This document shows, piece by piece, positions 8,272 through 24,016 of a stretch of DNA of 56,848 nt. A program made the translations under genes and the position numbers. Numbering within the stretch: position 1 is the first letter of the stretch; every line of letters begins with the position of its first letter. Source of the DNA: Nitrospirota bacterium (GTDB lineage Bacteria; Nitrospirota; Thermodesulfovibrionia; Thermodesulfovibrionales; Dissulfurispiraceae); NCBI GenBank assembly GCA_040754455.1, contig JBFMCP010000008.1, forward strand, positions 33,483-90,330, given 5' to 3'. The notes below the pieces were generated by a model that had not been told where the DNA came from, did not search any database, and saw only the letters and a program-made list of their open reading frames with translations.

Positions 8272-8289
8272 GCTGATCGGAGAGAGCAA

Positions 8290-8748
8290 ATGAAAGCTAT
8301 CATGACTTATAAAGGCTATACCGGGTCAGCACATTTCAGCGCAGAAGATAAGGTATTTCACGGCAAGGTAGAAGGGATAAAAGATTTAATCCGCTTTGAG
8401 GGCAGGGACGTTGAAAATCTTAAAGACGCTTTCCATGAGGCCGTAGACGATTACATAGAGCATTCTAGGGCAAAAGGGAGGGAGCCCAAGAGCCCCTATA
8501 GTCTTTCAATATTTCATCCGGCAGCGGCTCAAAGAAGCTCTTATCGATCGCTATCCGTGGATTTCACCAAAATCAGCACTATAGGGTATTTCGTTGCTCC
8601 AACATTTTTGGGGGGAATTGGGACGACTACTTTACCGAAGAAGCGGCGTAATGCAGACAGAAAAAGGAGCAGAAGAGATTTTATTACTTCTGGGCAGGAT
8701 CGAGCACGGAGTATTCTCATAGCAGAATATCCCATCCTTACATCGTGA
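8290..8748 (+). CDS. HicB-like protein, N-terminal domain only with an aberrant C-terminus (possible pseudogene)
   Basis: YKGYTGS..FHGKVEGIKDLIRFEG..FHEAVDDY..PKSPYS is HicB-like, then the sequence diverges; no hicA nearby. Confidence 0.7.
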   Translation: MKAIMTYKGYTGSAHFSAEDKVFHGKVEGIKDLIRFEGRDVENLKDAFHEAVDDYIEHSRAKGREPKSPYSLSIFHPAAAQRSSYRSLSVDFTKISTIGYFVAPTFLGGIGTTTLPKKRRNADRKRSRRDFITSGQDRARSILIAEYPILTS

Positions 8749-8769
8749 GAGAATCATCAAAAATAGAAT

Positions 8770-9027
8770 ATGAAACAAAAATCAGAAGCAGATCTTGATC
8801 TGAGTAAAACAAAGCTAATCAACCAAAGCCCTCCGCGATGCAAACAGTGCTGGTTTCCCGATCAGGACGATCCGAAGCGATTTATGGTCAGCTTCATAAA
8901 TCCTGAAAATGGGAAACTGGCCTTCGCAATCAAATGTCCCAACATTCTGACCCAGTTCGGGAAAGGATGCTCATCTACTTGGGAGCCTGAAACTACCGAA
9001 GAAATAAATCTGAAGAATGGCAGTTAA
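8770..9027 (+). CDS. Small Cys-containing hypothetical protein
   Basis: 85 aa ORF with CKQC plus two further Cys. Confidence 0.5.
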   Translation: MKQKSEADLDLSKTKLINQSPPRCKQCWFPDQDDPKRFMVSFINPENGKLAFAIKCPNILTQFGKGCSSTWEPETTEEINLKNGS

Positions 9028-9060
9028 AAACGGCTGAGTTGAAAGAGCCCAGAAGAGCTG

Positions 9061-9491
9061 ATTTGTCCGCCCGGACGGACAAATGCATTTTGCGATGGTA
9101 AAACAACAGGGTGCGACCGATTATGCGCACTTTTTATGAAGCAAGAATAGCTCTACAGTAACCAGAACAACTCTGCGGTAGGGAAGGGGGAGCCGGATAC
9201 AGCCTCTTTGTTCGGATTCCGAACAGATGATAATATTACAAATGATGAAAATAAAATAATGTGTTCGGTCCCCGAACATTCTGGCCAGTGACCGCCACCC
9301 CGATCCAGCTTCAGCGTGCTGAAAAAAACTTAATAGAAGCTTTTCAAAACAATCAAGCGCGACCGATTATGCGCACTTCTCTCATGAATATACAAAATAA
9401 CAAGTGAGGAAACGACTCTCCGGAATCCATGATGGACCGTTCCGGTACATCGAGGAAAGGGAAAATTGAATGTGCGATCCACTCCGCGCAG
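9061..9491. repeat. Cluster of palindromic sites of three types
   Basis: ATTTGTCCG-N6-CGGACAAAT (9061-9084); TGTTCGG-N3-CCGAACA x2 (9209, 9262); GYGCGA-N8-GCGCA x3 (9111, 9357, 9472), two of which share an exact 20-mer. Confidence 0.8.
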
Positions 9492-9915
9492 CTCCGCTCC
9501 TCACACATACAATTTTCCCCACTATGAGACCTCGCAGGGAACACCGTTCAGGCGCTCCGGCCTTAACCGTGTTTCCCTGCTCTATCCCCCTTCCCTACGC
9601 TTCCCCTGAGTGAATGCATCCAGGGGACCAATCCCCTGCCCCCCTCCTTAAAAAGGCAAAGACAAAGGCGCGGCGCGGTACTAAAGGAGGGCGACTATCA
9701 CAGGTCGCGCCAGGTCCTTCGGCCCTGTCACGCCCTGTGCTGGCCGCCATTTTGATTTGATAAACCCTCTCGCTACGCTCAAGGCCGACACTTTCGCCGT
9801 ACATGGAAGTTAAATCCCCCGTCACCGCCCCCTCTGTTTTTGTGAAGGGGGCGGCGCCGGGGGGAACGGTTTTAGAGGGGAAGAAGACATTAGAACGACA
9901 ATCTCAAAGGAGAAA

Positions 9916-9949
9916 TATTGCAGGCACCCCTCCCCCCCTATTAATTAAG
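9916..9949 (+). promoter_or_regulatory. Element promoter-like motif class A, copy 1
   Basis: TATTGCAGGCACCCCtcCCcCCCTATTA, 25/28 identical to 25726-25753. Confidence 0.7.
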
Positions 9950-10017
9950 TAGATACATATCGAAATCCCCGGCGGGCAAGGTTAGCGGCCCGGTCCCGCC
10001 GGGGGAAGGAGGACACC

Positions 10018-10554
10018 ATGAAACAGGCAGTACCCCTCGAAAGTATTATAGCACAGGGGGGAGAGAGAGAAGAGATGTACCCAGTCATCCGGGCGGCAGC
10101 AAGAAAAAGGTATGGACGCCTAGGACCAATCTGGGAGGACGTAGCGCACGAGGCGTGGATCATTGTGAACGACCCGGAGCGGCGGCGGGTGGCGGGAACA
10201 AGGCGCAAGTGGAGCGTCAAGATCCTAGACGAAGCGGCCCGAAATCTTGGGATATACCGAATGAAATATACCGATGACAAAGTAATTCTTGCTCCGCCGC
10301 GCGAGGGCATACCTATGCCTTGCAGCTTGGGGGGGCGGAAGGATGAGCGGATCGACATATTGGGGGCGGCGAGAGATCCGCGTCTGCTCGGCGTGATCCG
10401 GGAGGTCCTCGCGGCGGCGGAACAGGGCGAAGACGTAAGGATCGTGGAGCTGGCCCGGCGGCACGGACTAAGCTACCGGCAGCTGAGGCGCGTAGGGCTG
10501 GCGGCGTGGGCTCAACGCGGACAGCTCGGTCTGTTGGAGGTGGGGGATGAGTGA
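10018..10554 (+). CDS. Putative small alternative (ECF-sized) sigma-factor-like protein
   Basis: Region-2-like segment YPVIRAAARKRY..WEDVAHEAWI and region-4-like HTH IVELARRHGLSYRQLRR; AAGGAGG RBS. Confidence 0.55.
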   Translation: MKQAVPLESIIAQGGEREEMYPVIRAAARKRYGRLGPIWEDVAHEAWIIVNDPERRRVAGTRRKWSVKILDEAARNLGIYRMKYTDDKVILAPPREGIPMPCSLGGRKDERIDILGAARDPRLLGVIREVLAAAEQGEDVRIVELARRHGLSYRQLRRVGLAAWAQRGQLGLLEVGDE

Positions 10555-11350
10555 CCTGATACCCTGTCGCATTGAGCGCAGACAGAAGTACCGATCTATT
10601 AGTCTGATTGCGGCGGAAGATCCTCGCCTGAGCTGGGCCGCGAAAGGCGTTCACACATATCTCATTACCCGTCCAGAGGACTGGAAGTTGTACTACAGTG
10701 ATCTGTTGGCGCGATCATCAAACTCCCGGACTGCACTCAAGAGCGCCATTCGGAATCTCAAACAGGCCGGTTATCTTGTCTTGGAGCCCATCCAGGGCGA
10801 GGATGGTAAGTTTAAGGGGTGGCGCTGGGTTGTGTATGAGGAGCCGCAAAATTTTGGCGAAGAGAGCCAATCCTCACCGAAAGCACGAAAACCGACTTTC
10901 GGAAAAACCGTCAGTCGGAAAAACCGACCGACGGAAAACATACAGGGCAATAATAATCATAATAATAATAATAATCATAGTAAGTATAAATCATCTCTCT
11001 CCGCTTCGCACGAGAGACTCCTTGCGGAAGCCCAAAAACTATTCCCTGATAAACCGCTATCAATAGAGTTGCCTACTCGTAATCTTGATTACTTTCTTCA
11101 GCTTTATGAGGAGGGCAGAGCAAAACTCGCAACTATTGACACCCCGATTGCGTATATCAAGGGCCTCATTGTAGCGGATGACTACATCCCATACAGGGAG
11201 CGGCAGCGGCGGCGGGTGGCGCAGGTGCGAGAGGAGATAGCGAAAAAGAGACAGCAGCGGGAGTTGGAGCAGCAGATCGAGCGGGAGCGGATGGAGGGTA
11301 TACCAGCGGAGGCGCGGGAGGCCTTAGATGTTTTATTGGGGAGGGTATAG
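10547..11350 (+). CDS. Phage-type replication initiator (N-terminal winged HTH)
   Basis: DPRLSWAAKGVHTYLITRPEDW..AIRNLKQAGY..WVVYEEP resembles phage replisome-organiser N-termini; internal iterons. Confidence 0.75.
   Translation: MSDLIPCRIERRQKYRSISLIAAEDPRLSWAAKGVHTYLITRPEDWKLYYSDLLARSSNSRTALKSAIRNLKQAGYLVLEPIQGEDGKFKGWRWVVYEEPQNFGEESQSSPKARKPTFGKTVSRKNRPTENIQGNNNHNNNNNHSKYKSSLSASHERLLAEAQKLFPDKPLSIELPTRNLDYFLQLYEEGRAKLATIDTPIAYIKGLIVADDYIPYRERQRRRVAQVREEIAKKRQQRELEQQIERERMEGIPAEAREALDVLLGRV
10877..10990 (+). other. Putative intragenic replication origin (iterons plus AT-rich region)
   Basis: CCG-N5-CGG-An units at 10892, 10908, 10924 (16-bp period) plus a degenerate one at 10877, followed by an (AAT)n tract. 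Confidence 0.7.
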
Positions 11351-11355
11351 TCGCC

Positions 11356-11385
11356 GCAAAAATATTTTGGCTTAGTGCACATATA
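11356..11385 (+). promoter_or_regulatory. Element promoter-like motif class B, copy 1
   Basis: GCAAAAA-N13-TGCACATATA upstream of the xis-relaxase operon. Confidence 0.6.
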
Positions 11386-11430
11386 TGTAGGGATGTTGAT
11401 TTTCACTATATCAAAAAAGGAGGTAGTTGT

Positions 11431-11739
11431 ATGAGTGAAAAATTGTTGAGGGTCGAGGAGCTGGCAGAGATGCTTAACCTTAAGCCTTCAAGTATTTACC
11501 AGCTCGTTTTTAAGCGGAAGATACCTTGTATCAAGATTAGCCGCCGAGCGGTCCGGTTCGAGCTTAACCAGATATTGAAGTGGCTGGAGTCAAAGGCACA
11601 GCAGCCAGGAGCAGAGCCGGTGCCGGTGCCCAAGCCTGTCCGCCGAAGTACTAGGCGGAAAAGGTCCGGCCGAGTAACGGAGGAAAGCATCCGTTCAATG
11701 ATTGAAAACATAAAAAAGGAGGTATTGTCACATGAGTAG
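11431..11739 (+). CDS. Excisionase / AlpA-like HTH protein
   Basis: LLRVEELAEMLNLKPSSIYQLV..IPCIKI..VRFE..ILKWLE typical of HTH_17 excisionases. Confidence 0.85.
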   Translation: MSEKLLRVEELAEMLNLKPSSIYQLVFKRKIPCIKISRRAVRFELNQILKWLESKAQQPGAEPVPVPKPVRRSTRRKRSGRVTEESIRSMIENIKKEVLSHE

Positions 11740-12067
11740 TCTTGTTAAAATTCTGCTTTTCACCAGCCCGATATTAGCCATTGTGTTTTACTGGAATGTA
11801 AGCCAGCAACGTGCATTGGACGTTCAAATGCAGCGTGAGGATGCAGCTTTCGATCGAAGCTGGAATGAGCTCGCGGGGGAATTATCGAGTAGCAAAGCAT
11901 TAAAGAAGAAGTACGCCGAACGAGCAAGGGAGGCGGATACCCAGCTAAAGGAGCTTGAGGCGAAAGAAAAGGTGAGCGAGAAAAGACCGGATGATTTTCT
12001 GAAAGAATTCGATAACGCTTTAGAAGACAAGGACGTGCAGAAAGAGCTCGAAAGGAGGCTTCAATGA
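11732..12067 (+). CDS. Membrane-anchored coiled-coil hypothetical protein
   Basis: N-terminal hydrophobic helix, charged helical remainder; AGGAGG RBS; overlaps xis. Confidence 0.7.
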   Translation: MSSLVKILLFTSPILAIVFYWNVSQQRALDVQMQREDAAFDRSWNELAGELSSSKALKKKYAERAREADTQLKELEAKEKVSEKRPDDFLKEFDNALEDKDVQKELERRLQ

Positions 12068-12351
12068 GCATGAAAAAAAGACTGTCTGAAATATATAAGA
12101 AGTACGTTAACGATTCCAGCAAAATATTCAGTCAGAGGAGGAATCAGATCATGGCTTTCATTTTCCTGTTACTGATAGCTGCATTTGTTGTACGGTTTGT
12201 GGATTTTGGAGATATCCATTCTCTCATTTGGCTAATCTGTAACACCTCTATCTCATCTGTTTTTATAGTCCGAAAGATAAAAGTAGGGAAGTGGAATCCT
12301 TATGATTTCCTTGGGCTGCTCGATGTGCAAGGGCCAAAAGCAGGAGGATAG
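12064..12351 (+). CDS. Small membrane protein (about 2 TM)
   Basis: Two hydrophobic stretches; ATGA coupling with the upstream gene. Confidence 0.6.
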   Translation: MSMKKRLSEIYKKYVNDSSKIFSQRRNQIMAFIFLLLIAAFVVRFVDFGDIHSLIWLICNTSISSVFIVRKIKVGKWNPYDFLGLLDVQGPKAGG

Positions 12352-12355
12352 AGTA

Positions 12356-15300
12356 GTGGTCACAATCGGAAAAATTTATGAGAAGTTGAAGGAATATGAA
12401 AAGGATAATTACTATCTCTCAGATGAGCAGGGTAACACCCTTGCCCCTGAAAAAATTGGGGAGGGATGGGAAAAGCTCGGGTTCAAGGGAGAAATTAACG
12501 AGACCGTCTATAAGGCGCTCAAAGAGGGTAAAGACCCGTCCACAGGTGAGCAGCTTGTCCAATCAGGCGTTAATGGCGATAGGCGCAGCGGCTACAACTT
12601 TACCCTTTCTCCAGATAAGAGCTGGACTGTGTATGCTCACTCTTCTCCTTCGGCGGCAAAGATCGTGTTGGACATACACAGCAAATCTGTTGCCGATGCA
12701 ATGCGCTATCTGGAAAGCGACCTTGCACAGGTCCGCCAGGGCGCAGGCGTTCAGGGTAAGTCTGAGCCGGTGAAGACCGGTAATATTCTCGCCATGCGAG
12801 TAGATCACCAGGTCAACCGCGAGGGGGATATTCAGCTTCACTCGCATATAGTCGCCTTCAATCAAACCTACAACCCTGAAACTGGCAAATGGCAGGCCCT
12901 TCATAGTGATGCTTTCCACTCTGACGTTTTAACTAAGCTGTACGAAAATCAGCTTGCCTACTATGCGCAAGAGGCCGGGCTTGCTGTCGAGTGGAAATTA
13001 AGCGATAGCGGCAGGACTCAATATGCCGCGCTTGCAGGGGTCCCGGACAAGGCTGTTGAAGTGACCAGTGAGCGGGCACGCCAGGTGGATGAGTACGTCA
13101 AAGAGCATTATGCCGAGCTCAAAGCGAAATATCCCCATGCCTCAGACGGCGAGCTAAAACAAATAGCCGCCCTGGAGACCCGTAAAGATAAGGTCAGCAT
13201 GACTCCGGAGCAGATCGACAAACAGTTCACCGATAAGCTGGGCTCGGTAGGATTAACCAGGGAGGATATAGTTTCAGGCGTAGAGGCAAAGGCGAAGGAA
13301 TACCAGGAACAGCGCCTTGATACCATCAGGATGAACGAATACGAGGTGCTACAGCAGGCAGCTAAATCGCTTACTGATTATTCCTCTACTTTTTCCAAGC
13401 AAGAGCTCCTTAAAGCAGCGACCGATATTAGCAAGGGCGATGTCTCCATAACCCAGCTACAGGATAGCATCAAGGACCTGGATAAAGAGATCGTTAAGCT
13501 CAGCAGTAGTCACACCATCTCCGACCGAGGCAGAGCCTACAATGATGCTGTTTATACCTCTCCTGAAGTCCTACAGGCCGAAAAACAGGCTTTCCGGATG
13601 GTGGAGCAGGGCAAAGGTCAAATCCAGGCAATTATGAGCCAGGAAGAGGCTCAGAAAGCGATAGCTGCATGGGAGCAGAAAAATAGCTTTAACATGACTG
13701 AGAGCCAGCGCAACGCCGTCCAGTTCTTCCTTACCAGTACCGATCGGTATACCGCTGTGCAAGGGTATGCAGGGACCGGAAAGACCACCGTGATGAAATC
13801 TATCTCAGAGCTTGCAAAGGAGAAAGGGTACAGGATAGTGGGTATCTCAGAGACAAATGTTGCAGTCCAGGAGATGAAAGCCGCCGGCATGGAGGCCATG
13901 ACAGCGACAAAATTCCTGCATGACCATAAGCTGCACCAAAGCATGGACGATAAGACTATCGTTATTTCCGATGAGAGCAGTTTCATGGGTGCAAAGAATT
14001 TCAAAGCTGTCCAGAGCGTGATTGAGAAGTCCGGGGCGCGGACTTCTTTCTGGGGAGATAAAGAGCAGTTGCCGCCGATCAGCGCCGGGTACCCCTTTAA
14101 GGAGTTGATCGACAGAGGCGTAATCAACCATGTCGAGGTGAAAGATATCATTCGTCAAAAAGATGAGGCGTACTTGCAGGCCGTTAAAGATGTCGTAAGC
14201 AAAAAAATTGATTCGGCCTTCTCAAAGCTACACGTGGTTGAGGATAAGTATGGCGACCTCCACCAGCGAGCAGCGGAGATTTATAAAGAGCGGGGTGGTT
14301 ATAAAGATTATATTATTTCCACCTATACCAATTCAGATAAAGATAGGCTTAATACTATGATCCGAGCGGATCTCCAGACTGAAAGCAAGGTAAGCAAGGA
14401 AGGACAGACGCTCCAGGTCTGGGAGAACAAAAATCTCTCCGGTACGGACCGGTTTAACACTCATAACTACCAGTCAGGGGACAAACTTGTTGTCATGCAG
14501 GCCGGGAGCGGAGCCGGAAAGGTAGGGGCGGAGTTAACTGTTAAAAGTATCGACCCGCTCACTCACACCGTTATAGCCGAGGGTGTGGACCGCAAGGGGC
14601 AGGCATTTACCAGAGAGATCGACATCAGGAGACACGGCGACAAGTTCAATACGTATTCACCCGTGGAGAGGGAGTTTGCCAAAGGTGACAAAATCATCTT
14701 CAGCAAGACTGATAAAGAGACAGGTATTGCAAACTCCGAAGTCGCTTATATAAAAAGCATCAACCAGGACGGCAGCATAACCTTTGATATGGGTGGCAAA
14801 GAGGTTACGACCCACAGCAGGTATTTCGAGTACGGCTATGCATCTACAACACATAAATCCCAGGGCAAGACTTCTCAGGGAACAATATATTTTGCGCCGG
14901 TACAGGTCCGCACAGGCAAGGATGGCAACACACTTGAACGGGGGCAAGCCGACCGCTTCCAGGACTTTTACGTAGGAATAAGCCGGGGAAGGGCGGCGGG
15001 GATTGTCATAACCAACGAACAGGGCATTCTCAAAGAACAGGTTTCTCGGCTCGCTGAAAAGGATAGCACCTTTAATTACAGTGGCTCTTTAAAACGCGAA
15101 ATCGCCAAGGCCGAAAAAGAGATTGCCGGTGACCACAATCCCGACTCCCGGAAACTGGAAAAGCTGAATGCTTTGCGCGACGATTTCAACCGGCTCAAGG
15201 CGGCGGAAAGGGAAAGACAGCCAGTAGAAAACAGGGGCTCTCAAACCGGTAATCAGTTTATCCGGCACTACGAGGGAGGAAGGAACGGCTCAGGCAAAGG

Positions 15301-16087
15301 GCCGACATGGGAGCTCGCAAAGATCGGAAGAGCGAAGCTCACTTACAGTGCAGACCACGGCCTTGAGTTTTCAACCGTCAAGAGGGGCATATGGACGCAC
15401 CAGAAAAAGGGAAAAGTCCTTGCGGGGGCGGATAAGGGAGAGAGATCCTTTAGCTCCACTAAGAAGAAAATGAGCTTGCACGGAGGCCGCTACTCCGGGG
15501 TAACTGTCAGGTCAAAAAACGGCGTTGTGTCTATTACGAAATGGGAAGGTCGCCAAACCATAGGCTTATTTAAACCTGGCCTCAAGATCGACAATTCCCA
15601 TACAACCCAGATTGATGTTAAGGGAATGGTCAAACACTTAAATACTCAAAAAGAGGCTTTGTCGAAGGGCAGTAAAGCAGTCAAACATATCGACAACGCG
15701 ATCAAGCATTTGGAGAAGCTTGAGCGCACCTGTAAGCCCGAGAGATACGAAAAGGGCATGCAGGAAATATCCAGATTTGAGCGCGAGCTTTCCACAATGA
15801 GGATGCAGGAGAGGCAGGCGGCTAAGAATGAGAAAATGATGAGATCCGAACGCGGAGGGAAACGCGAACAAGGCAAAGCCTCTACGTTCGGGTTCGACAA
15901 AACCAGACAGCCGGAAACCTACAAATCGCAGGGTGGCGGACAGAACAAAACTCACGATTCCGGGGCCGGGGTATCTCATAAAACCGGCAATCGGGACAAC
16001 GGGAAGTCCAAAGCCGACAACTCGAAATCTAAGGATTCCGGGAAATCAAAATCCGATAATTCACGGAGCATGGAAAAGTCGAGATAG
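12356..16087 (+). CDS. MOBF (TrwC/TraI-like) relaxase-helicase
   Basis: GTG start behind AGGAGG; DNYY, HQVNREGDIQLHSH (3H motif), QGYAGTGKTT, ISDESS, YGYASTTHKSQG helicase motifs. Confidence 0.93.
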   Translation: MVTIGKIYEKLKEYEKDNYYLSDEQGNTLAPEKIGEGWEKLGFKGEINETVYKALKEGKDPSTGEQLVQSGVNGDRRSGYNFTLSPDKSWTVYAHSSPSAAKIVLDIHSKSVADAMRYLESDLAQVRQGAGVQGKSEPVKTGNILAMRVDHQVNREGDIQLHSHIVAFNQTYNPETGKWQALHSDAFHSDVLTKLYENQLAYYAQEAGLAVEWKLSDSGRTQYAALAGVPDKAVEVTSERARQVDEYVKEHYAELKAKYPHASDGELKQIAALETRKDKVSMTPEQIDKQFTDKLGSVGLTREDIVSGVEAKAKEYQEQRLDTIRMNEYEVLQQAAKSLTDYSSTFSKQELLKAATDISKGDVSITQLQDSIKDLDKEIVKLSSSHTISDRGRAYNDAVYTSPEVLQAEKQAFRMVEQGKGQIQAIMSQEEAQKAIAAWEQKNSFNMTESQRNAVQFFLTSTDRYTAVQGYAGTGKTTVMKSISELAKEKGYRIVGISETNVAVQEMKAAGMEAMTATKFLHDHKLHQSMDDKTIVISDESSFMGAKNFKAVQSVIEKSGARTSFWGDKEQLPPISAGYPFKELIDRGVINHVEVKDIIRQKDEAYLQAVKDVVSKKIDSAFSKLHVVEDKYGDLHQRAAEIYKERGGYKDYIISTYTNSDKDRLNTMIRADLQTESKVSKEGQTLQVWENKNLSGTDRFNTHNYQSGDKLVVMQAGSGAGKVGAELTVKSIDPLTHTVIAEGVDRKGQAFTREIDIRRHGDKFNTYSPVEREFAKGDKIIFSKTDKETGIANSEVAYIKSINQDGSITFDMGGKEVTTHSRYFEYGYASTTHKSQGKTSQGTIYFAPVQVRTGKDGNTLERGQADRFQDFYVGISRGRAAGIVITNEQGILKEQVSRLAEKDSTFNYSGSLKREIAKAEKEIAGDHNPDSRKLEKLNALRDDFNRLKAAERERQPVENRGSQTGNQFIRHYEGGRNGSGKGPTWELAKIGRAKLTYSADHGLEFSTVKRGIWTHQKKGKVLAGADKGERSFSSTKKKMSLHGGRYSGVTVRSKNGVVSITKWEGRQTIGLFKPGLKIDNSHTTQIDVKGMVKHLNTQKEALSKGSKAVKHIDNAIKHLEKLERTCKPERYEKGMQEISRFERELSTMRMQERQAAKNEKMMRSERGGKREQGKASTFGFDKTRQPETYKSQGGGQNKTHDSGAGVSHKTGNRDNGKSKADNSKSKDSGKSKSDNSRSMEKSR

Positions 16088-16136
16088 AAGAGGGAAGAAG
16101 GCACAGACGTCGAAGTTGAATAATTTTACACATCAG

Positions 16137-16172
16137 GGCGGTAACTTTTTATAGGTTACCGCCTTTCTTTTT
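16137..16172 (+). terminator. Intrinsic terminator after the relaxase gene
   Basis: GGCGGTAAC-N9-GTTACCGCC followed by a T-run. Confidence 0.8.
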
Positions 16173-16243
16173 CACGCTTTTGCTGAAAGAAAAGGCATGC
16201 TTACGCTGAGGATGGGGGTATCCCCCATAGCCCCCACTTTTTT

Positions 16244-16272
16244 TAAGACACCCAACGCAACTTGCCGTTGCA
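16244..16272 (-). other. MOBF oriT core; predicted nic between 16248 and 16247
   Basis: Minus strand GCAAC-GGCAA-GTTGC-GTTGGGTGT^CTT: hairpin plus TGCGTnnGGTGT, like F-type (TTTGCGTGGGGTGT^) and IncN nic sites. Confidence 0.8.
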
Positions 16273-16310
16273 ATAAATTCCAAAAAACATCCATAAATCA
16301 ATCTGTCACA

Positions 16311-16421
16311 TGTGGGACATTTGTGCAATCGTAGCAACAAGTATCCCGCTCAAAGCCTTATCGCTCTAGTGATTCCTTCTATTTTTAGTTGTGGTACATG
16401 ATTGTGCCCACATGTCCCACA
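16311..16421. repeat. Imperfect inverted repeats next to oriT (candidate RHH accessory-protein sites)
   Basis: TGTGGGACAT at 16311-16320 and ATGTCCCACA at 16412-16421, with further partial copies. Confidence 0.6.
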
Positions 16422-16451
16422 GCAAAAAAAGCAATCCTCGATGCATATATA
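16422..16451 (+). promoter_or_regulatory. Element promoter-like motif class B, copy 2
   Basis: GCAAAAA-N13-TGCATATATA. Confidence 0.6.
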
Positions 16452-16498
16452 TAGCAGGATCGGAGCGTTCTTAATTAATGAGACAAGGAGGTAAAAGA

Positions 16499-17017
16499 GT
16501 GAAAAGTACAGTCCTGAAAGTGAGGATTTCGGAGCAGATGTCGAAGCAGATCAAGAGCGCTGCTAGTGGTGGTAACGTCAGCGATTATGTGCGGGAGGCC
16601 ATCAAAAAAAGTCTCGATGACGGGAAGGAGGAAGCCGCTCAATTTCTCGAACTGGTGCAGAAGCTGGATGCATCGAGCTTGCCCGAAATCTCTGAAAAGG
16701 TGGACATGATTTTGCACGAGATCAATGAATTGAGGGAGGCTCAACAGGAACGGATTTCTCCGCAGCGCCAAACAAAGGTGGAGCCCTCTGCCAAGGAAGA
16801 GAAGTTAAAGGCCGAGGTGCTGAAAATCGCCAAGATCATGGCGATTAATGCCAAGATGTTACCCGCTGAAAATAGTGTTTTCGGGCCGCTCATCAACGAT
16901 AACTTCGAGGTGGAACGACCCTTAAAATTCATCTATGATTACCTGCGTCATATGAGCAAGGACAGGTTAGCGGTCAAGCAGAAAATAAGCGAGCTCTTCC
17001 CTGATTTCCTCAAATAG
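16499..17017 (+). CDS. RHH protein, probable relaxosome accessory factor (TrwA-like position)
   Basis: VLKVRIS..NVSDYVREAI RHH; GTG behind AAGGAGG; adjacent to oriT. Confidence 0.7.
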   Translation: MKSTVLKVRISEQMSKQIKSAASGGNVSDYVREAIKKSLDDGKEEAAQFLELVQKLDASSLPEISEKVDMILHEINELREAQQERISPQRQTKVEPSAKEEKLKAEVLKIAKIMAINAKMLPAENSVFGPLINDNFEVERPLKFIYDYLRHMSKDRLAVKQKISELFPDFLK

Positions 17018-17148
17018 TCTGGGCTGAGGAGAGAGCTGCTAAACAGCAAAATGCTTGAAGGGAGGAGGGCGGCTTACCGCTGCTCTCTTCCTGTCGGAAT
17101 TCAGATTTTAGCTTCTTGGATTTTTAATTTTCCTCATTTCCCATATCC

Positions 17149-17257
17149 AGACACCTGTAATCCTACCGTCTTTCTTATTAGGTGCCTCATAATGCCCCTC
17201 ACAAGACACCTGCTTTACCTCTGACTACTTATTTTCTACAAAACAGGTGTCTCATAA
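17149..17257. repeat. Two AGACACCT/AGGTGYCT inverted pairs (candidate centromere or operator)
   Basis: AGACACCT at 17149 and 17204; AGGTGCCTCATAA at 17180; AGGTGTCTCATAA at 17245. Confidence 0.7.
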
Positions 17258-17319
17258 GCAACTTTCCTGCATATCGCAAAGAAAATTTATCGCTGCATGA
17301 CACTTTTCTGCATATTTTC

Positions 17320-17349
17320 GGAAAAAAGTTCCGTTCTGATGCATATAGG
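17320..17349 (+). promoter_or_regulatory. Element promoter-like motif class B, copy 3
   Basis: GGAAAAA-N13-TGCATATAGG. Confidence 0.6.
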
Positions 17350-17370
17350 TAATGGAAAGGAGGGCGTCAC

Positions 17371-17589
17371 ATGATGACAAAACGGAATCTTAAATGCAAA
17401 AGGTGCTATCAAAGCGCAGCGTGCCTAATGACGGAAAGGATGCGCGAAAAGTGCAACGGACCATATCAGTCCCGTGCAGAACACATCAAATCCCTTAAGG
17501 GTTTGTTGGGCAGAAAGGAGGTGATTTCCGATGCCGAAGGACCCGAAAAAATTGCGGGAGCAGGCAAAAAAACTGCTGGCCGAAGCTGA
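17371..17589 (+). CDS. Small Cys-rich protein (CxxC-x5-C-x9-C)
   Basis: AAGGAGG RBS; CKRCYQSAAC..C. Confidence 0.6.
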   Translation: MMTKRNLKCKRCYQSAACLMTERMREKCNGPYQSRAEHIKSLKGLLGRKEVISDAEGPEKIAGAGKKTAGRS

Positions 17590-17707
17590 CAAGATCGAGC
17601 AGGCCAAGTACGTAGAAATCGGGAAGGCAGTACTCAAGTTTCTCGAACAGGAAGCACCCGGCAGCCTCGATGATTTGAAGGCTGTCATTGAAAAAATCAA
17701 CGGCTAA
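17531..17707 (+). CDS. 58-aa helical hypothetical protein (absent from the ORF track)
   Basis: AAGGAGGTG RBS; MPKDPKKLREQAKKLLAEADKIEQ..EKING*; stop codon abuts the parM RBS. Confidence 0.75.
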   Translation: MPKDPKKLREQAKKLLAEADKIEQAKYVEIGKAVLKFLEQEAPGSLDDLKAVIEKING

Positions 17708-17719
17708 AGGAGGATCGTA

Positions 17720-18691
17720 ATGCAGCACAAAGTAGTAGGAATCGATGTTGGCTACGGCTATACCAAAATCATCACGGAAGCGGGTAACGGAATGGTTATC
17801 CCGCTGTCTTTCCCAAGTATAGTTGCCACCTATCAGGGTGGTGAAATCGAGATCGATGGGCTCAGGCAGAGCGACCGCCAAGTGGTGCGCGTTGATGGGC
17901 AGATGCTCCTCGTAGGAGAGGCGGCTTTGAAGCATGGCGGGCGCGTGCTGAACGGCAGGGAAAAGGGCTGGATCAGCACAACAGCGTACAAAGCGCTGAT
18001 GCTTCGTGCTCTTTCCATGGCCGAGGCAAATAGCCTCAGCCTGACCATCGTTACGGGGCTCCCGGTGAACTTTTACCGGTCAGACAAGGACAAGCTCGTA
18101 AATATCGTAAGGGAGCTTATAAAGGACTACTGCCTTAACCTCACTGTCAAGGTTATCCCCCAGCCTTTGGGGAGCTTCTTTTCCCTCTTATTCGATGATA
18201 GCGGGAATGTCAAAGAGCCTCACATGGCGGATCAGAAGATCGGCGTCCTGGACATCGGATTCTATACGACAGACCTGCTCACTATCGACGCCCTGGAGGT
18301 TGCCGAAAAGCAGATCGGAAGCTTCGAAAACGGTGTCTCTACGGCTCTGGAGGCGATTGCTAAAGATATCGCGAATATCTATGAGATAAGACCTGACCTC
18401 CACAAAACAGAAGAAGCAGTCAAGAAAGGATTCATCAAGGTGTTCGGCAGCGAGAAAAGCATAAAGGAAATTGCCGAACAGAGATTGCAGGAGCTTGAGC
18501 AGGAGATCGAGGCTCAGGCAAAGACCATCTGGAAGTCCGGCGTGGACCTTGACAGGCTGTTATTGACAGGAGGAGGAGCGGAGCTGCTGAAGCCTTACCT
18601 GAACCTGTACCAGCACGCCACGGTGATCCCCGAAGCACAGAGCGCCAATGCCCTAGGATATTACCGCTACGGACGGAGGGCCGCACAGTGA
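17720..18691 (+). CDS. ParM/StbA family actin-like ATPase
   Basis: GIDVGYGYTK, VTGLP, IPQP, LDIGFYTTD, LTGGGA, ANALG actin-fold motifs. Confidence 0.92.
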   Translation: MQHKVVGIDVGYGYTKIITEAGNGMVIPLSFPSIVATYQGGEIEIDGLRQSDRQVVRVDGQMLLVGEAALKHGGRVLNGREKGWISTTAYKALMLRALSMAEANSLSLTIVTGLPVNFYRSDKDKLVNIVRELIKDYCLNLTVKVIPQPLGSFFSLLFDDSGNVKEPHMADQKIGVLDIGFYTTDLLTIDALEVAEKQIGSFENGVSTALEAIAKDIANIYEIRPDLHKTEEAVKKGFIKVFGSEKSIKEIAEQRLQELEQEIEAQAKTIWKSGVDLDRLLLTGGGAELLKPYLNLYQHATVIPEAQSANALGYYRYGRRAAQ

Positions 18692-19017
18692 GGACGGCGA
18701 TAAAGATCACCCTTAATAGTAGTGTCCCGTTTGATGCGGTGATTCTCGATTATCTGAAAGGCAAAAAGAACAAAGCAGGCCAGCTCAAAATGCTGGCCTA
18801 CAATCAGATCGTATTGACAAAGGTGCAGGCAATTGAGTCGTCTCTTACAAACCCCGACCGTCTCTCTACAGTTCAGGGCTCTGTCGTGGCAGGGAAAAGC
18901 ACTGTGCAAACTGAGGAAGTAAACACACCATCGAAGGATGCAGTACAGCCATCTGAAAAAATGCCCTCAGAGAGAGCGGAAATAACAGCCAAACTGAACA
19001 AGCTACTCAACTTTTAA
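18688..19017 (+). CDS. Putative ParR-like adaptor/DNA-binding protein
   Basis: GTGA-coupled to parM; RHH-like N-terminus, disordered middle, amphipathic C-terminal helix. Confidence 0.6.
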   Translation: MRTAIKITLNSSVPFDAVILDYLKGKKNKAGQLKMLAYNQIVLTKVQAIESSLTNPDRLSTVQGSVVAGKSTVQTEEVNTPSKDAVQPSEKMPSERAEITAKLNKLLNF

Positions 19018-19031
19018 AGGAGAACTACAAT

Positions 19032-20864
19032 ATGAAAAACGATTTAAAGGACCTTCATGAGGTAACCCGCAAGGACCAGGCGTACAAGGGGTTCGAAAGC
19101 GCTAAGATTGCCGGAAAAATGGCGGCAAAAATGCACCTGTACCTCGGCCTTTTCTTTTTCTTTGTGCAGATGTTTATTGCCTTCATTCTCAGTGTGATCA
19201 GCTACGGCAGGGCGTGGAGCGCTGTTTTCCGGTACGTATATAGTGCCATTGTGAGCCTCTCATGGCCGGACGCGCTGAGCATTGGTATGAAATGGCTGGC
19301 ATGGCGCTCAATCGGCCTCTTTCTCGTGTCCTCTCTCATTTGGCTCCTCTATCCATCCGCACTGCGGTATTTCCGCAAGAGAGCGGCCAAACAGAGCGAG
19401 CCTCAGTACGTGCGAGGTGCGAAATTAATCACTATTGAGGAGCTGAGCAGGGAAATTACCAAATCCGGCGAGCAGGCGGATCTTCCTCTCGGGGAAATTA
19501 GAATGCCCGTGAGCGCAGAACCGAAGCATGGTTTCATCGTGGGTAGGCCGGGAGTAGGCAAGACCGTGGCCCTGTCTCAGATTATCGGCAGATTGTCCGA
19601 GCGGAGGGCAAAGGGCGTGATCTATGATTTCAAGGGTGATTTTGTCAGCAAGTTCTACAACCCGGACCGGGATATTCTTTTTAATCCCCTCGATACCAGG
19701 TGCCAGGGCTGGACACTTTTCAACGAGCTATCTAATTTTATGGATGTGGATGCCGTTGCACATTCGCTGATTCCGCCGGCTTATCAGGCCGACCCTTTCT
19801 TCAATGATGCGGCCAGAGATGTGTTCAGCGGCATTCTCCACTATCTCTATCAGCAGGGAGCAAGAAGTAACGCTGATATCTGGCGTGCAGTAACGGCAGA
19901 CAAAGAGGATATTGCCAAGTGGCTGTCCCAAACCAAGGGCGGGGAGCGGGGCCATAGCTATATCTCCGATGCAAGCTCCAAGCAGGCATTAGGAGTAATA
20001 GCAACTATGATGCAGTACACCAAGGCATTCGAGTATATGAGTAAAAGCGATGGTGACTTCTCGGTCAAGCGCTGGCTTGATAACCCGGAGCCTGGCTTTA
20101 TCTTTGTCACCAATTATTCGGATGTGAAGGATACCCTGAAGCCCATCTTATCCTTGTTTATCGACCTTATGGGCAGAAAGCTTCTTTCTATGAAAGACGA
20201 CCATAACCGGCGTGTCTTTTTCATGCTCGATGAGTTCGGTACCTTACAGCGGTTGTCGACCATTGTGCAACTCCTTACCTTATCGCGCTCGAAGGGAGGG
20301 TCCGTCTGGATCGGCATCCAGGACATCGGACAGATCGACAAGATATACACGCCGCAGCTCCGTCAGTCGATTGTAAATGCATGCGGGAGCAATCTCATTT
20401 TTTCTGTGGCCGATCCTGATACCGCAAAATTCCTGAGCGACAAAATCGGCGATACGGAATATATCGATGTAGAAGAGACCCAGACCATGGGACCAGAGGA
20501 GAACAGGGACGGTATCTCCCTGGTTCGCAGAAAGCGGACGGAGAAACTTGTTCTTCCCAGCGATATTGCCGGCTTGCCGGACCTGACGGCTTACTTGAAG
20601 ATACCGAACTATCACATTGCGCAAACCCGCTTCGAGTACCGCTCCTTCACGGACCGCCATGAGCCTTTCATTATGCGCCCGGACCTCTCCCTCGATGCAA
20701 TCATGGCAGAACAGGCCGCAATCATAGCACAGGCGGCGGCGTTCACTGACGGAGGGAAACAGCAGTCAGGGCAGGTAAAGGCTGACAGGAACGTAGAGAG
20801 AGAGGAAGAACGCGATGAAGGCCGCGAGGCGGAAGATGACCTGTTTTTCGGGAGCGGGAGCTAA
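19032..20864 (+). CDS. Type IV coupling protein (TrwB/TraD-like)
   Basis: N-terminal TM helices, GRPGVGKT Walker A, IYDFKG, FNPLDTR, FMLDEFG Walker B, acidic tail. Confidence 0.93.
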   Translation: MKNDLKDLHEVTRKDQAYKGFESAKIAGKMAAKMHLYLGLFFFFVQMFIAFILSVISYGRAWSAVFRYVYSAIVSLSWPDALSIGMKWLAWRSIGLFLVSSLIWLLYPSALRYFRKRAAKQSEPQYVRGAKLITIEELSREITKSGEQADLPLGEIRMPVSAEPKHGFIVGRPGVGKTVALSQIIGRLSERRAKGVIYDFKGDFVSKFYNPDRDILFNPLDTRCQGWTLFNELSNFMDVDAVAHSLIPPAYQADPFFNDAARDVFSGILHYLYQQGARSNADIWRAVTADKEDIAKWLSQTKGGERGHSYISDASSKQALGVIATMMQYTKAFEYMSKSDGDFSVKRWLDNPEPGFIFVTNYSDVKDTLKPILSLFIDLMGRKLLSMKDDHNRRVFFMLDEFGTLQRLSTIVQLLTLSRSKGGSVWIGIQDIGQIDKIYTPQLRQSIVNACGSNLIFSVADPDTAKFLSDKIGDTEYIDVEETQTMGPEENRDGISLVRRKRTEKLVLPSDIAGLPDLTAYLKIPNYHIAQTRFEYRSFTDRHEPFIMRPDLSLDAIMAEQAAIIAQAAAFTDGGKQQSGQVKADRNVEREEERDEGREAEDDLFFGSGS

Positions 20865-20893
20865 AAAAGTTTTCTCTCTCCTCCCTGAAAAGG

Positions 20894-20923
20894 AAAAAAA
20901 AGGTCGTTGCCAGTGCAAATAAG
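20894..20923 (+). promoter_or_regulatory. Element promoter-like motif class B, copy 4 (degenerate)
   Basis: AAAAAAA-N13-TGCAAATAAG upstream of the cargo genes. Confidence 0.5.
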
Positions 20924-20948
20924 AAATAGGAAATAGAAAGGAGGCTGT

Positions 20949-21305
20949 ATGGACATAATGACGAAATTGGGGAAAGAGCTTTTGGACAAGGGGGCGACGG
21001 CATGCCTCCCGAGAAACTTAACGGACTACTGGCTTGATGTGCTGCTGAGGGATGCTGAGGCCATGGACGCCGGAGAAGTGGGGGAATTGATATTGGCCGT
21101 CGTTATAAGGATTTGCGAGGCGAAGTTTGCGGTAGAAAAAGAGGTGATGATCCCTTACGACGATCTTTTCGAGTACTGCGACTCCTACAAGATAGAGCTC
21201 GCTCTCGAAAAAATCAGCCGGGCCACCGACATCAAATACGAGAAAGCGTCTCTCAATACAATCCTCACCAAGCGTGATGTCAGGGTTTGGAAAGAGAATG
21301 AATAA
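20949..21305 (+). CDS. Hypothetical protein
   Basis: 118 aa ORF with AAGGAGG RBS. Confidence 0.65.
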   Translation: MDIMTKLGKELLDKGATACLPRNLTDYWLDVLLRDAEAMDAGEVGELILAVVIRICEAKFAVEKEVMIPYDDLFEYCDSYKIELALEKISRATDIKYEKASLNTILTKRDVRVWKENE

Positions 21306-21528
21306 CGGAGAATACAAGGAGAGCTTGCGTTGCCCGCGCTGCGAGGGGTTCCTGTTCGACGCATGGTATGCAGCCTTCGGCAGAGACATGGAATTTTATA
21401 AGAATCTGCGTATGAAGAAGTGCATCAACTGTAGTCGCATCTGGCGTATGGTGAAGGATGAAATTCAGGAGTTTCCTGACCGGGAATTCGACGAAAGAAT
21501 AAAGCTGCTGCAAGCAGGAAGGAGGTGA
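21298..21528 (+). CDS. Zinc-ribbon-like small protein
   Basis: CPRC..CINC pair; overlaps the upstream stop. Confidence 0.65.
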   Translation: MNNGEYKESLRCPRCEGFLFDAWYAAFGRDMEFYKNLRMKKCINCSRIWRMVKDEIQEFPDREFDERIKLLQAGRR

Positions 21529-21654
21529 ACAGTAAGGCATGGGAAAGTGCAGGAGCGCAGGACACAGCCCCCGCCAGGGCAGACCTCTTGGAGGTCTGAT
21601 AAGCCGCGCCCTGCACATTTAACATTAACCACTTTATTTAAAAGGAGAATAAAC

Positions 21655-22137
21655 ATGAAAGCAGTAAGCCATATTTTTGAAAGCAACAAAAGTAAAGGAT
21701 GGACCGTAAGAAAGCTCGTACTAGCCCTAATTCTCGCACTGGCTGTGGTCATCGGTGCTCTTACAGCGGCAAATGCAGCAACGGAAGCTGCAACGGAACC
21801 GGACCAAAAAGAAATAAAGTATGCTGCACAGCTGTTACTGCCCGCGAACGTTCCCCCGGCAAAAGCTGCCCGGACTGACTGCGATCTTACCATCGGCTAC
21901 AAGGGAAAGAACCTTCTGGGCCTCGGCAAGGAAAGAGTGGTCAGTGGTAAGGCAATCATATATGCCAATTTGAAAAGCATATCAATTTCCGAAATCGGGG
22001 AAGTCCGGAAAGAGCTCGACAATGCAAGGTACGAGGTAGAAGGCGTTGATCCCGATAGTAATGAAAATTTCCGGTCAATCACAATTTCCTGCCCGCTTAA
22101 GGATGGGCGCCTTTACATGACCGTTGTCAAAAACTAA
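21655..22137 (+). CDS. Exported hypothetical protein
   Basis: AAGGAG RBS; signal peptide ending ANA; two Cys. Confidence 0.7.
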   Translation: MKAVSHIFESNKSKGWTVRKLVLALILALAVVIGALTAANAATEAATEPDQKEIKYAAQLLLPANVPPAKAARTDCDLTIGYKGKNLLGLGKERVVSGKAIIYANLKSISISEIGEVRKELDNARYEVEGVDPDSNENFRSITISCPLKDGRLYMTVVKN

Positions 22138-22143
22138 GAGAAA

Positions 22144-22163
22144 GGGGAGCTTAGGCTCCCCCC
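22144..22163 (+). terminator. GC-rich hairpin between cargo genes
   Basis: GGGGAGC-TTAG-GCTCCCC. Confidence 0.5.
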
Positions 22164-22190
22164 CCAACTAAAACTTACAGGAGATCAAAA

Positions 22191-22550
22191 ATGAAAACAA
22201 ATACTAAATGTGAGAGAAAGGACCGGAGCGGGGCTTTGATAGCAACGGTAGCGTTAGGAGTAATGCTCTTTGTGATGCTGATTGCATTCAGGACATTTGC
22301 CGTTTCAGTCGGGAAGGTGATTTCCTGGTCAACACCGAAGGGCAAAGTTTTTTTCGAAGGCAGTACGCATGACCGGAAAAAGGGTCTTCAATGTCGTGAC
22401 TGCCACTCAAACGTTTTCACGATGAAGAAAGGTATGAATAAAATGACAATGCAAGACATTAACGACGGTAAATTTTGCGGGGCGTGTCACAATGGCAGCA
22501 GAGCCTTTAAAGCAAGTGATCCTGCCAACTGTAGCAGGTGCCATGCTTAA
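22191..22550 (+). CDS. Triheme c7-type cytochrome
   Basis: Signal or TM segment; CRDCH, CGACH, CSRCH; GKFCGACHNG..AF signature. Confidence 0.92.
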   Translation: MKTNTKCERKDRSGALIATVALGVMLFVMLIAFRTFAVSVGKVISWSTPKGKVFFEGSTHDRKKGLQCRDCHSNVFTMKKGMNKMTMQDINDGKFCGACHNGSRAFKASDPANCSRCHA

Positions 22551-22575
22551 GGCCGGAAAGGAGGAATGCAGGATA

Positions 22576-23241
22576 ATGAGAAAGTTCACTGTATTATTGT
22601 TCATAGCTATTTTGCCCTTAATTGTCTCTTGCGCCGGCGTGCCCACCGCGAGAGAGGTCTACGATAGAGTCAATGTAATACAGCCTCTCGTGCATACAAA
22701 TAGTGAAGCGAGGAAAATCATAGGAGGCAGAGAGAAGCTGGAATATGTAAGAAGCCCATATAACTCTGCTGACGACTACCTTCCCAACCACATGAAAATG
22801 CTTAAGATGGATTTCAAATGCGTAAAAACAGGCTCCAGGGAGGGGTGGGAAAGAGAATGGGCCATGAAAAGGGAATGGGCAGAAAAAGGATACAGTCCTA
22901 CCCGCTTATATTCCAGCTTGGACTTAAAGCACGAAATGTTTGTCGAACGTCTCAGCCCTCGTAACTGCTACGCGGACACTTTCGTAAAAAAGGAAACTTA
23001 CTACTTTGGCCCGGACTATACGCCACCCGTAATACAGGTAGAATATATTTTTGATAAACCGGATGACACTAAAAACAGAAAACTGGTGGTGCTCAGGATA
23101 TCAAACTTCATGGGGGAGGCTGTCGATATAAAAGAATCAGAGGAAAAGCTGAAGGCTATGGAGGGGAAGGTCCCCAATGATTTATATGAGAGAGCCTTAA
23201 AGCTTTTATATTTGCCCGATGGCACCTCTACCGCCTACTAA
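22576..23241 (+). CDS. Putative lipoprotein
   Basis: MRK plus hydrophobic core plus IVSC lipobox; AAGGAGG RBS. Confidence 0.75.
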   Translation: MRKFTVLLFIAILPLIVSCAGVPTAREVYDRVNVIQPLVHTNSEARKIIGGREKLEYVRSPYNSADDYLPNHMKMLKMDFKCVKTGSREGWEREWAMKREWAEKGYSPTRLYSSLDLKHEMFVERLSPRNCYADTFVKKETYYFGPDYTPPVIQVEYIFDKPDDTKNRKLVVLRISNFMGEAVDIKESEEKLKAMEGKVPNDLYERALKLLYLPDGTSTAY

Positions 23242-23290
23242 ACATCGGCACCCTCTCCTTGAGAGGGTAACAATCTGCTGACAGAGGAGA

Positions 23291-23974
23291 ATGATGAATA
23301 TTCTTGTTTTCATTCTAATCATATTCGGCTTTACGAGTACTGCTTGTGCTGATGGCTATGACGAAACCATTGCCCAGATAAAGTATATTATCACCGAAAA
23401 GAAAAGCGTTGAAGCTTATGTATCGCAAAGATGCGCATTCGTCAAAGGGGGCCCGCTCTATAATAAGCAAGAAGTCGAGTGGCAAGAGGCTTTCAGCCGC
23501 TCAACGAACTCAAACTTCTCATGTTTCATTGGGAATGGGACCTTCATGGCAGAGGGGAATAAGAGGCTTGATTTCAACAACTGGAAAATTTACAAGTATA
23601 CTTATAATCTTCCGATAGGGCTTGTCCATGAGATTTTCTTTTATGGAGATGAACCCTCAACGTGGAGAATTTCAGACCTGTCAGGTAACTATATAACTCT
23701 TTCCGTCAACAGTCTCATACCCCAAGCATTGTTATTTATTGATGCTAAGTTGCCCATAGTCGCTCAGACAGCACTGAGCCTACTGGGACAAAGAGCTGTC
23801 CAGTTTCAAGGCAACGAACTGATACAGCTCCTCAATGACACCTATAAATTGAGATTTGCCGAGGGGGGAGACTCCATGTTTGCTATCGCTAATTCCCTTT
23901 TGCTTGACCTTAGAGTAAGGGAGATTTTTGTTGAAACAGCTGTAGAAATAATTACAGCTAAAGCAAAACGCTAG
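23291..23974 (+). CDS. Exported hypothetical protein
   Basis: Signal peptide ending ACA; GAGGAG RBS. Confidence 0.7.
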   Translation: MMNILVFILIIFGFTSTACADGYDETIAQIKYIITEKKSVEAYVSQRCAFVKGGPLYNKQEVEWQEAFSRSTNSNFSCFIGNGTFMAEGNKRLDFNNWKIYKYTYNLPIGLVHEIFFYGDEPSTWRISDLSGNYITLSVNSLIPQALLFIDAKLPIVAQTALSLLGQRAVQFQGNELIQLLNDTYKLRFAEGGDSMFAIANSLLLDLRVREIFVETAVEIITAKAKR

Positions 23975-24016
23975 CTGCGTGACAGATGCAGCTCGATTGA
24001 GAAAAGGAGGTAGTGA

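Follow-up and report, generated by a model that had tools for sequence, protein, structure and literature searches.

Background

Element-encoded sigma factors are already known. Sig7-8 of Tn916, associated with the promoter Psig7, positively controls xis and transfer genes of its element (bioRxiv 10.64898/2026.10.01.756105), and SigN (ZpdN) of pBS32 is an extracytoplasmic function (ECF)-like sigma factor with a regulon of its own (PMC6751061). In phage T4, late transcription involves gp55, gp33 and gp45, with a sigma2-type factor, a C-terminal clamp motif and promoters consisting mainly of a -10 box (PMC7892883, PMC9690074), while the QxxLF motifs of C/Mor of phage Mu recruit the beta-clamp of the host, E. 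coli, to late promoters (PMC12867686). SetCD, from SXT/R391 ICEs (integrative and conjugative elements) and MGIs (mobilisable genomic islands), goes with an element-specific repeated motif placed before xis and transfer operons that have no canonical promoter (PMC4344509). The locus compared with them lies in a 56,848-nucleotide stretch of DNA, hereafter the window, from a Nitrospirota bacterium of the Dissulfurispiraceae (assembly GCA_040754455.1, contig JBFMCP010000008.1, positions 33,483 to 90,330 of the forward strand). It contains a 19.8-kb island (7281-27128) inserted in a tRNA-Lys gene, in which a bipartite motif recurs upstream of several operons. Comparison of this island with its relatives suggested that the motif is island-specific, conserved in the island family, and very likely the promoter for the island's own sigma-like factor, protein 10018. 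Genomes (G), contigs (C) and loci (L) are referred to below by our own labels.

Motif distribution in the window and in the host genome

The initial annotation of this DNA had reported motif copies at 11356, 16422, 17320 and 20894. All four proved real, with their true starts 2 nt further on, since the earlier positions included two flanking bases: AAAAA-N13-TGCANATA occurs exactly at four places of the window, whose first bases are 11358, 16424, 17322 and 20896. As had been claimed, all lie on the plus strand with the same 13-nt spacer, against a mean of 0.03 copies expected by chance (100 dinucleotide shuffles, none of which reached four), and a search of the window allowing one mismatch gave no further copy. 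Five exact matches were present in the whole host genome (3.27 Mb). The fifth, at C8:21073 on the minus strand, lies within a 636-codon host open reading frame (ORF) and was rejected as a chance occurrence in coding sequence, so that no exact intergenic copy was counted outside the island.

Each copy stands at the head of one of the four operons located after the sigma-rep gene pair: the xis-11732-12064-relaxase operon (copy 1, 11358-11383), the ribbon-helix-helix (RHH) gene (copy 2, 16424-16449), the series 17371-17531-parM-parR followed by the coupling protein (T4CP) gene (copy 3, 17322-17347) and the block located after the T4CP gene (copy 4, 20896-20921). Their ends are 47, 28 or 49 (depending on whether ATG16478 or GTG16499 is used), 23 and 27 nt away from the next start codon, and the measured range of 23-49 nt agrees with the 20-50 nt first announced. 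The absence of a good TTGACA/TATAAT promoter at these positions was borne out as well: the island held 16 sigma70-like matches, for 20.2 expected, none of them at the four motif sites. When the genome was scanned with a matrix derived from 29 sites of related islands, copies 2, 1 and 3 ranked first, second and third among 6.54 million positions (33.8, 23.2 and 17.7 bits, respectively), the training sites of this matrix having been chosen by a pattern derived from the window motif and being thus not fully independent of it. Copy 4 was much weaker (6.9 bits, rank 123). A 13.8-bit match on the minus strand near the left island end was not counted because it overlaps a 15-bp repeat recurring before the integrase gene.

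Conservation of the motif in related islands

Coupling protein matches were found in 23 of the 301 genomes of the class, and the surroundings of 21 other coupling-protein islands and of two sigma-bearing islands devoid of coupling protein were compared with the window. The relatives named by the searches belong to Nitrospirota. A fuller form of the motif, AAAAAA-N12/13-(T)GCATATATA, occurred at equivalent places: before xis, RHH and small pre-par genes, immediately behind the gene for the coupling protein, and sometimes before the integrase gene or the sigma operon. The site just after the coupling gene was found in G038, G044, G224a, G203, G224b and G032, and in a weaker form in G100 and G291; its presence at that position in relatives supports the weak fourth copy of the window. 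A metagenome scan with the coupling protein yielded six short contigs, none of which included promoter regions.

The bipartite layout was also recovered from its right half alone. Among 88 occurrences of GCAT[AT]TA collected from 10 motif-bearing islands without any filter for the A-tract, AAAA peaked at -19/-18 (27 and 28 occurrences), with counts of 0-8 outside the interval from -21 to -16. Of 39 sites scoring at least 15 bits, 36 had a co-oriented Shine-Dalgarno (SD) sequence and ORF within 200 nt, as judged by a loose SD pattern and with no control. In the same set, likewise with no control, the SD sequence started 12-16 nt after the G in nine sites and earlier in two, positions which would fit a -10 box with a transcription start near +12 to +14.

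Sites of one island resembled each other more than those of different islands in the 5' flank, the spacer and the tail of the -10 box (46 sites, permutation p 0.001), and flanking controls displayed no such excess (p 0.10 and 0.65). Island-specific variants such as AAACAAAA in G100 were observed, and two islands hosted by a single genome (G224) carried different site variants, the spacers of G224b being 0.82 identical among themselves.

The sigma-like protein family

Protein 10018 (10018-10554, plus strand) has an ECF-like size of 178 aa. In related islands, divergent homologues were found at the same place, before a Rep or an AAA helicase gene. A single-sequence search returned the query only; a representative library added four homologues and an alignment search two more, and locus scans with the sigma alignment detected two genomic loci, viral contigs and PLSDB plasmids yielding none. 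The profile of the 16-member family matched ECF sigma factors across both domains (positions 32-157, E 0.002-0.01) as well as region 4 of the host ECF factor (probability 90.9). Pfam region 4 was recognised in four of the 16 members and TIGR02937 in six, and 10018 itself scored 22.8 bits for region 4 when left out of the profile. Its language-model features (Atlas) stood at 0.95-0.96 to phage sigma70 clusters.

The single-sequence model of 10018 was poor (pLDDT 54). The alignment-based model (pLDDT 76.5) consisted of two helical domains joined by a low-confidence linker, and these two domains only, which would correspond to regions 2 and 4, are again ECF-like. With this model, ECF sigma factors made up eight of the nine top VIA rows (Z 5.1-5.9); residues 9-88 were matched to ECF sigma2 with a modest Z of 5.9 (rmsd 3.7, 75 aligned residues). 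Conservation within the family is highest in the sigma2-like half, including in members that have lost region 4. Taken together, the 10018 family is sigma-like in sequence and predicted fold, and its members are putative sigma factors.

No motif site was found upstream of 10018 in the window. The sigma-containing operon is preceded by such a site in G038 and G163, and TTGACA was present upstream of 6 of 13 sigma-like genes, some of which lie beside a divergent repressor. Two side observations concern the architecture of the factor. G224a contains, between a motif copy and xis, a stand-alone gene limited to region 4 (L033:2261-2530, minus strand) that resembles the C-terminal half of the island's sigma-like protein and is possibly an anti-activator or a helper. 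In the factor of G162 (L037:2665-3051, minus strand), a Cys-rich, zinc-ribbon-like segment replaces region 4 and a QLALLF tail is kept.

Co-occurrence and co-variation of the factor and the motif

Among 22 T4CP islands, nine had both the sigma gene and the motif, two the sigma gene only (G162, G164), one the motif only (G291) and ten neither; several of these last loci are short contigs or remnants, and some of the calls may be misses because the genome-wide sigma search overlooked the degenerate copy of G162. G026 and G112 lay outside this search, and in G044 and G100 the sigma and T4CP genes are on separate contigs, linked by the shared genome only. The association of gene and motif was significant (Fisher p 0.002, or 0.005 with near-copies collapsed). 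On the T4CP tree, the presence label changed six times and was no more clustered than shuffled labels. G162 and G164 are not true exceptions, since each of them has two -10-only variants before genes. The coupling protein of G222 is about 60% identical to that of the window, and its island, which has a divergent Xre repressor, is devoid of both sigma gene and motif. In G144, whose contig is 10.7 kb long, the sigma gene and a site of 30.9 bits were present, and neither relaxase nor T4CP gave a match.

The factor and its sites also varied together. Region 4 has been lost in G163, G224b, G164 and G162 (at most 1.5 bits), is borderline in G203 (4.0 bits) and is kept in the other 12 members (9-52 bits); these are leave-one-out scores, adopted after a region-4 profile built from four close members only had failed to discriminate. 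Region 2 is kept in G163, G224b and G164, and partly in G162. Among gene-leading sites collected by a search with only the -10 box, an A-tract was present in 17 of 18 where the island has region 4 versus 7 of 15 where it has lost it (p 0.004, or 0.02 with the borderline G203 moved), in a post hoc test devised after the data had been seen and from which sites in long ORFs or lacking an SD sequence were dropped.

A minimal island of G173 (L089:9484-13475) consists of a divergent repressor, the sigma-like gene, Rep, xis, an integrase and tRNA-Ala. In G291, an HTH_3-SpoU methyltransferase fusion (L027:5857-6663) lies between tRNA-Lys and the first motif copy.

The C-terminal tail

Near its C-terminal end, 10018 reads QLGLL (residues 169-173, codons at 10522-10536, plus strand), a predicted beta-clamp-binding motif. 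The pattern QxxL[FLW] was present within the last 15 aa of 11 of the 16 family members versus 0.45% of 2649 host ORFs, an enrichment whose p value is overstated because the family members are related. It is the best-kept C-terminal feature of the family and survives the loss of region 4; two members have an exact QLxLF, and no other island protein carries QxxL[FLW] at its C-terminal end. The host NAD-dependent ligase LigA ends in QHSLF. Ligase is a listed clamp partner, the clamp consensus being QL[SD]LF (PMC9690074), and transposases are reported to bind the clamp as well (PMC4549789). By analogy, binding of the QxxL[FLW] tail to the host beta-clamp, with a boost of the promoters once Rep has started replication, is a serious possibility that falls somewhat short of probable. 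With Rep as the next gene, replication-coupled activation would be a reasonable reading of the same analogy, and the tail could instead serve localisation or turnover.

Organisation of the island

The island is bounded by a 46-bp direct repeat of the tRNA 3' end, with attL at 7281-7326 and attR at 27083-27128, within the tRNA-Lys(CTT) gene (27083-27158, minus strand). The gene for 10018 overlaps at its end that of a phage-type replication initiator (10547-11350), which has internal AAAACCG[AT]C repeats at about 10888-10928; these and the following genes are all on the plus strand. Copy 1 is followed by genes for an excisionase-like HTH_17/AlpA protein (11431-11739), a membrane-anchored coiled-coil protein conserved in the island family and without Pfam match (11732-12067), and a TrwC (MOBF) relaxase-helicase (12356-16087), whose GTG start was chosen from homologues and a Shine-Dalgarno sequence. 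The non-coding stretch with inverted repeats between the relaxase and RHH genes (16088-16420) is likely a putative oriT. Sequence, position and homologues in relatives suggest that the RHH-like protein (16499-17017) is a relaxosome accessory protein. An actin-like ParM with a small partner (17720-19017) and a coupling protein of TrwB/TraD type (19032-20864) precede copy 4, and a tyrosine integrase is encoded at 25839-26993.

A ParE-type toxin-antitoxin pair was also identified among the ORFs of the island. A HicB-like gene at 8290-8748 adjoins an intact-looking RHH/ParE pair, and its match is confined to the 71 N-terminal residues of the HicB-like family. Sequencing runs X1-X3 contained a diverged second allele of the integrase (window positions 26108-26666), and a related island therefore co-occurs in those samples. 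No junction of a circular form appeared in the contigs of four DNA runs, which are no proof of its absence.

No VirB4-type ATPase (PF03135, TIGR00929) was found in the host genome (G000, 100% complete) or among the ORFs of the island. With its att repeats, integrase, relaxase and coupling protein, the element is an integrative mobilisable element, mobilisable because neither family of VirB4 was found in the genome, and it would need a helper for its transfer.

The initial annotation had placed the genes after copy 4 in the transfer regulon as a cargo block. The regulatory part of this claim is backed by the site usually present after T4CP in relatives, in spite of the weakness of copy 4 itself. 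The block (20949-25287, plus strand) encodes mostly exported proteins that belong to no Pfam family. Since homologues of proteins 21277, 21655, 23291 and 24017 occur in related islands, it cannot be taken as simple cargo: part of it is island core, and its probable role is in transfer or at the cell surface. Among its exported-type relatives, 20 of 21 had no Pfam family at E 0.001 and one had a weak TPR match. The cytochrome c7 gene (22191) looks like true cargo. The conserved membrane or exported proteins at 11732-12067 and 24017-25105 mark the family and may belong to some mating or surface apparatus not described so far.

Other repeats were observed. A class A motif, TGCAGGCACCCC-N8-CCTATTA, precedes the sigma-like gene (9919-9946, plus strand) and, in a second copy, the integrase gene (25729-25756); relatives yielded no copy of it, and it had no repressor gene in view alongside. 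The 15-bp repeat ATAGCATTTTCAAGC lies near both island ends (7351-7365, minus strand; 25791-25805, plus strand) and is possibly an arm-type site of the integrase. Three copies of ATAGATGTATC with 44-bp spacing are located near attL (7587-7685), and CCGATTATGCGCAC occurs twice upstream of the sigma gene (9117-9130 and 9363-9376), neither repeat being found in other loci. In L032, L044, L065, L086, L029 and L036, the integrase leaders have in common, some 10 nt behind a hexamer similar to TATAAT, a CTTTGA[CA]AA box, which we take to resemble boxA antitermination sites.

Proposed mechanism and alternative explanations

The conservation of the motif before the same operons, its co-occurrence with the sigma gene and the link between A-tract and region 4 lend support to the original proposal of a bipartite promoter for the element's own factor. 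In such a private promoter, the A-tract would be the -35 box, read by region 4, and GCATATAT the -10 box, melted by region 2; transcription would begin some 12-14 nt beyond the G of this box, with predicted starts near 11389-11391, 16455-16457, 17353-17355 and 20927-20929. Only when loaded with 10018 would the host RNA polymerase recognise these sites. The sigma-rep operon would be expressed first, from a different promoter, and the excision-relaxase, RHH, partition-coupling and exported-protein operons would then be switched on jointly; in the two islands where the motif lies upstream of the sigma operon, a positive feedback can be envisaged. If the QxxL[FLW] tail binds the host beta-clamp, firing would become stronger once replication had been set going by Rep, in the manner of late transcription in T4 and Mu.

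A broader conclusion is advanced more tentatively than the clamp binding itself. It may be that conjugative mobilisation follows here a phage-style late programme, in which a clamp-tethered one-chain sigma factor restricts efficient firing of the promoters for transfer, partition and excision to DNA whose replication by Rep is under way, and that the family is evolving towards a gp55 state, with loss of region 4 and the -35 A-tract and retention of region 2, of the -10 box and of the tail for the clamp. On this view, sigma-less, motif-bearing islands such as G291 could be switched on in trans.

Several observations speak against these interpretations. Taken alone, the window protein matched no sigma family in Pfam, PHROGs or NCBIfam; none of the 16 members matched Pfam Sigma70_r2 at E 0.01, no Foldseek match reached E 0.001 with either model, and the VIA Z values were modest, all being under 8. 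The tail QLGLL differs from the clamp consensus, and five of the 16 members have no strict QxxL[FLW], one of them having no tail. G291 has three strong sites and no sigma gene was found in it (89% complete genome, contig cut), and G173 has the factor, Rep, xis and an integrase without any site, no transfer genes being present in the stretch seen. About half of the sites of region-4-less islands (the 7 of 15 given above) retain the A-tract. The likeness of sites within islands could result from promoter duplication. The dependence of the matrix on the window motif, the post hoc nature of the A-tract test and the reservations attached to the island counts go in the same direction.

The main alternative is a promoter of the host sigma70 holoenzyme requiring an activator, either 10018 itself, acting as a MuC-like clamp-binding protein, or an activator of the SetCD type supplied by a helper element. 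It draws on the fact that SetCD promoters have no good -35/-10 boxes and that SetCD activates other islands in trans (PMC4344509), on MuC, which carries clamp motifs and works with sigma70 (PMC12867686), on the helper requirement of an island for which no VirB4 was found, and on the sites of G291 without detected sigma gene. However, the conserved box itself stands at the -10 position and does not fit T-A-x-x-x-T, which was seen in at most 3 of the 46 family sites for offsets 0-6 and in 10 of them for offset 7. A sigma70-like promoter overlaps one of these 46 sites, the family keeps its sigma2-like half best, even without region 4, and ten islands that would need a helper have no motif. This explanation is considered unlikely.

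It is still less likely that the motif is read by an alternative sigma factor of the host, which would place the island under host control. The host encodes six sigma70-family proteins (four RpoD-like, one ECF and one FliA-like), and the spacing of AAAA-N15-GCANATA equals that of the sigma28 consensus, TAAA-N15-GCCGATA. A looser motif pattern also matched in 156 of 301 genomes of the order; however, 15 of the 21 such sites inspected in other genomes fell in ORFs and three of the other six in integrase-bearing islands, which makes a host regulon unlikely. The promoter of the host flagellin gene reads TAAAG-N14-CCGATAA, and the cores CCGAT, CCCAT and GG-N10-GC, for sigma28, sigma32 and sigma54, were found in none of the 46 family sites. 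The lack of exact intergenic copies outside the island and the use of different variants by the two islands of G224 also argue against a host factor.

Least probable of all, the copies might be operator or relaxosome sites bound by RHH, Xis or Rep, or remnants of duplicated upstream sequence, as the very similar spacers of some islands (G224b) and the DNA-binding RHH and Xis proteins encoded just downstream of copies would allow, but the motif has an asymmetric, bipartite form with a fixed spacing and points the same way as the genes downstream, it is absent from islands with xis, relaxase and T4CP and no sigma gene, and in G144 a sigma gene and a strong site occur together on a contig with no relaxase or T4CP match.

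If the motif is indeed the promoter of the island's own factor, a candidate sigma factor, its promoter consensus and its regulon have been defined from sequence alone in a little-studied island family of Nitrospirota, a phylum with few mapped promoters. The family would moreover constitute a natural series of co-changing region 4 and -35 box, useful for the evolution of sigma-promoter pairs, and 10018 a compact candidate for an orthogonal sigma-promoter pair.

Comparison with known systems

As in Tn916, the putative sigma factor would control xis and transfer genes of its own element. Going by the descriptions, Sig7-8 is split into two proteins and has one major autoactivated promoter (bioRxiv 10.64898/2026.10.01.756105), whereas the island has one chain and apparently 4-9 dispersed promoters; in addition, the island sigma gene precedes Rep, its product ends in a clamp-type motif, and the island has no type IV secretion system ATPase. 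SigN resembles 10018 as an ECF-like factor on a mobile element with its own regulon. It differs by its Bacillus plasmid/prophage-like element, its LexA control and a regulon of replication and nucleotide genes. SigN is first produced from a repressed host-sigma promoter and then amplifies itself, while only sequence patterns in some relatives point to such a sequence of events here; the passages cited from this source contain no clamp link for SigN (PMC6751061).

The likeness to gp55/gp33/gp45 of T4 lies in the sigma2-type factor, the C-terminal clamp motif and, in the region-4-less members (G163, G224b, G162, G164), a gp55-like layout. In T4 the clamp is the phage's own and gp33 a separate protein (PMC7892883, PMC9690074), whereas 10018 keeps a region-4-like helix-turn-helix and bipartite sites. 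No clamp family was found among the island ORFs by protein-family scans, and the factor would therefore use host DnaN. With its bipartite sites and no clamp family, the island is not a member of the T4 gp55 type, and may work alike. Recruitment of a host clamp to late promoters is what C/Mor achieves in Mu, a lytic phage, but MuC is an activator working with sigma70 and has no sigma fold (PMC12867686). SetCD shares with the island an element-specific motif repeated before xis and transfer operons; its boxes overlap or precede the -35 region and rely on host sigma (PMC4344509), whereas the island motif is most conserved at -10.

In the literature searched, which covered few subscription journals, no published case was found of replication-coupled transcription of conjugative mobilisation by a sigma-fold protein on the host clamp. 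Should the tail act as its counterparts do in T4 and Mu, the coupling of transcription to replication would reach beyond phage late genes into conjugative mobilisation. Compared with the element-encoded sigma factors described so far, what is new here is a multi-promoter regulon in a Gram-negative mobilisable island, a region 4 that varies together with the -35 box, and the clamp-type tail.

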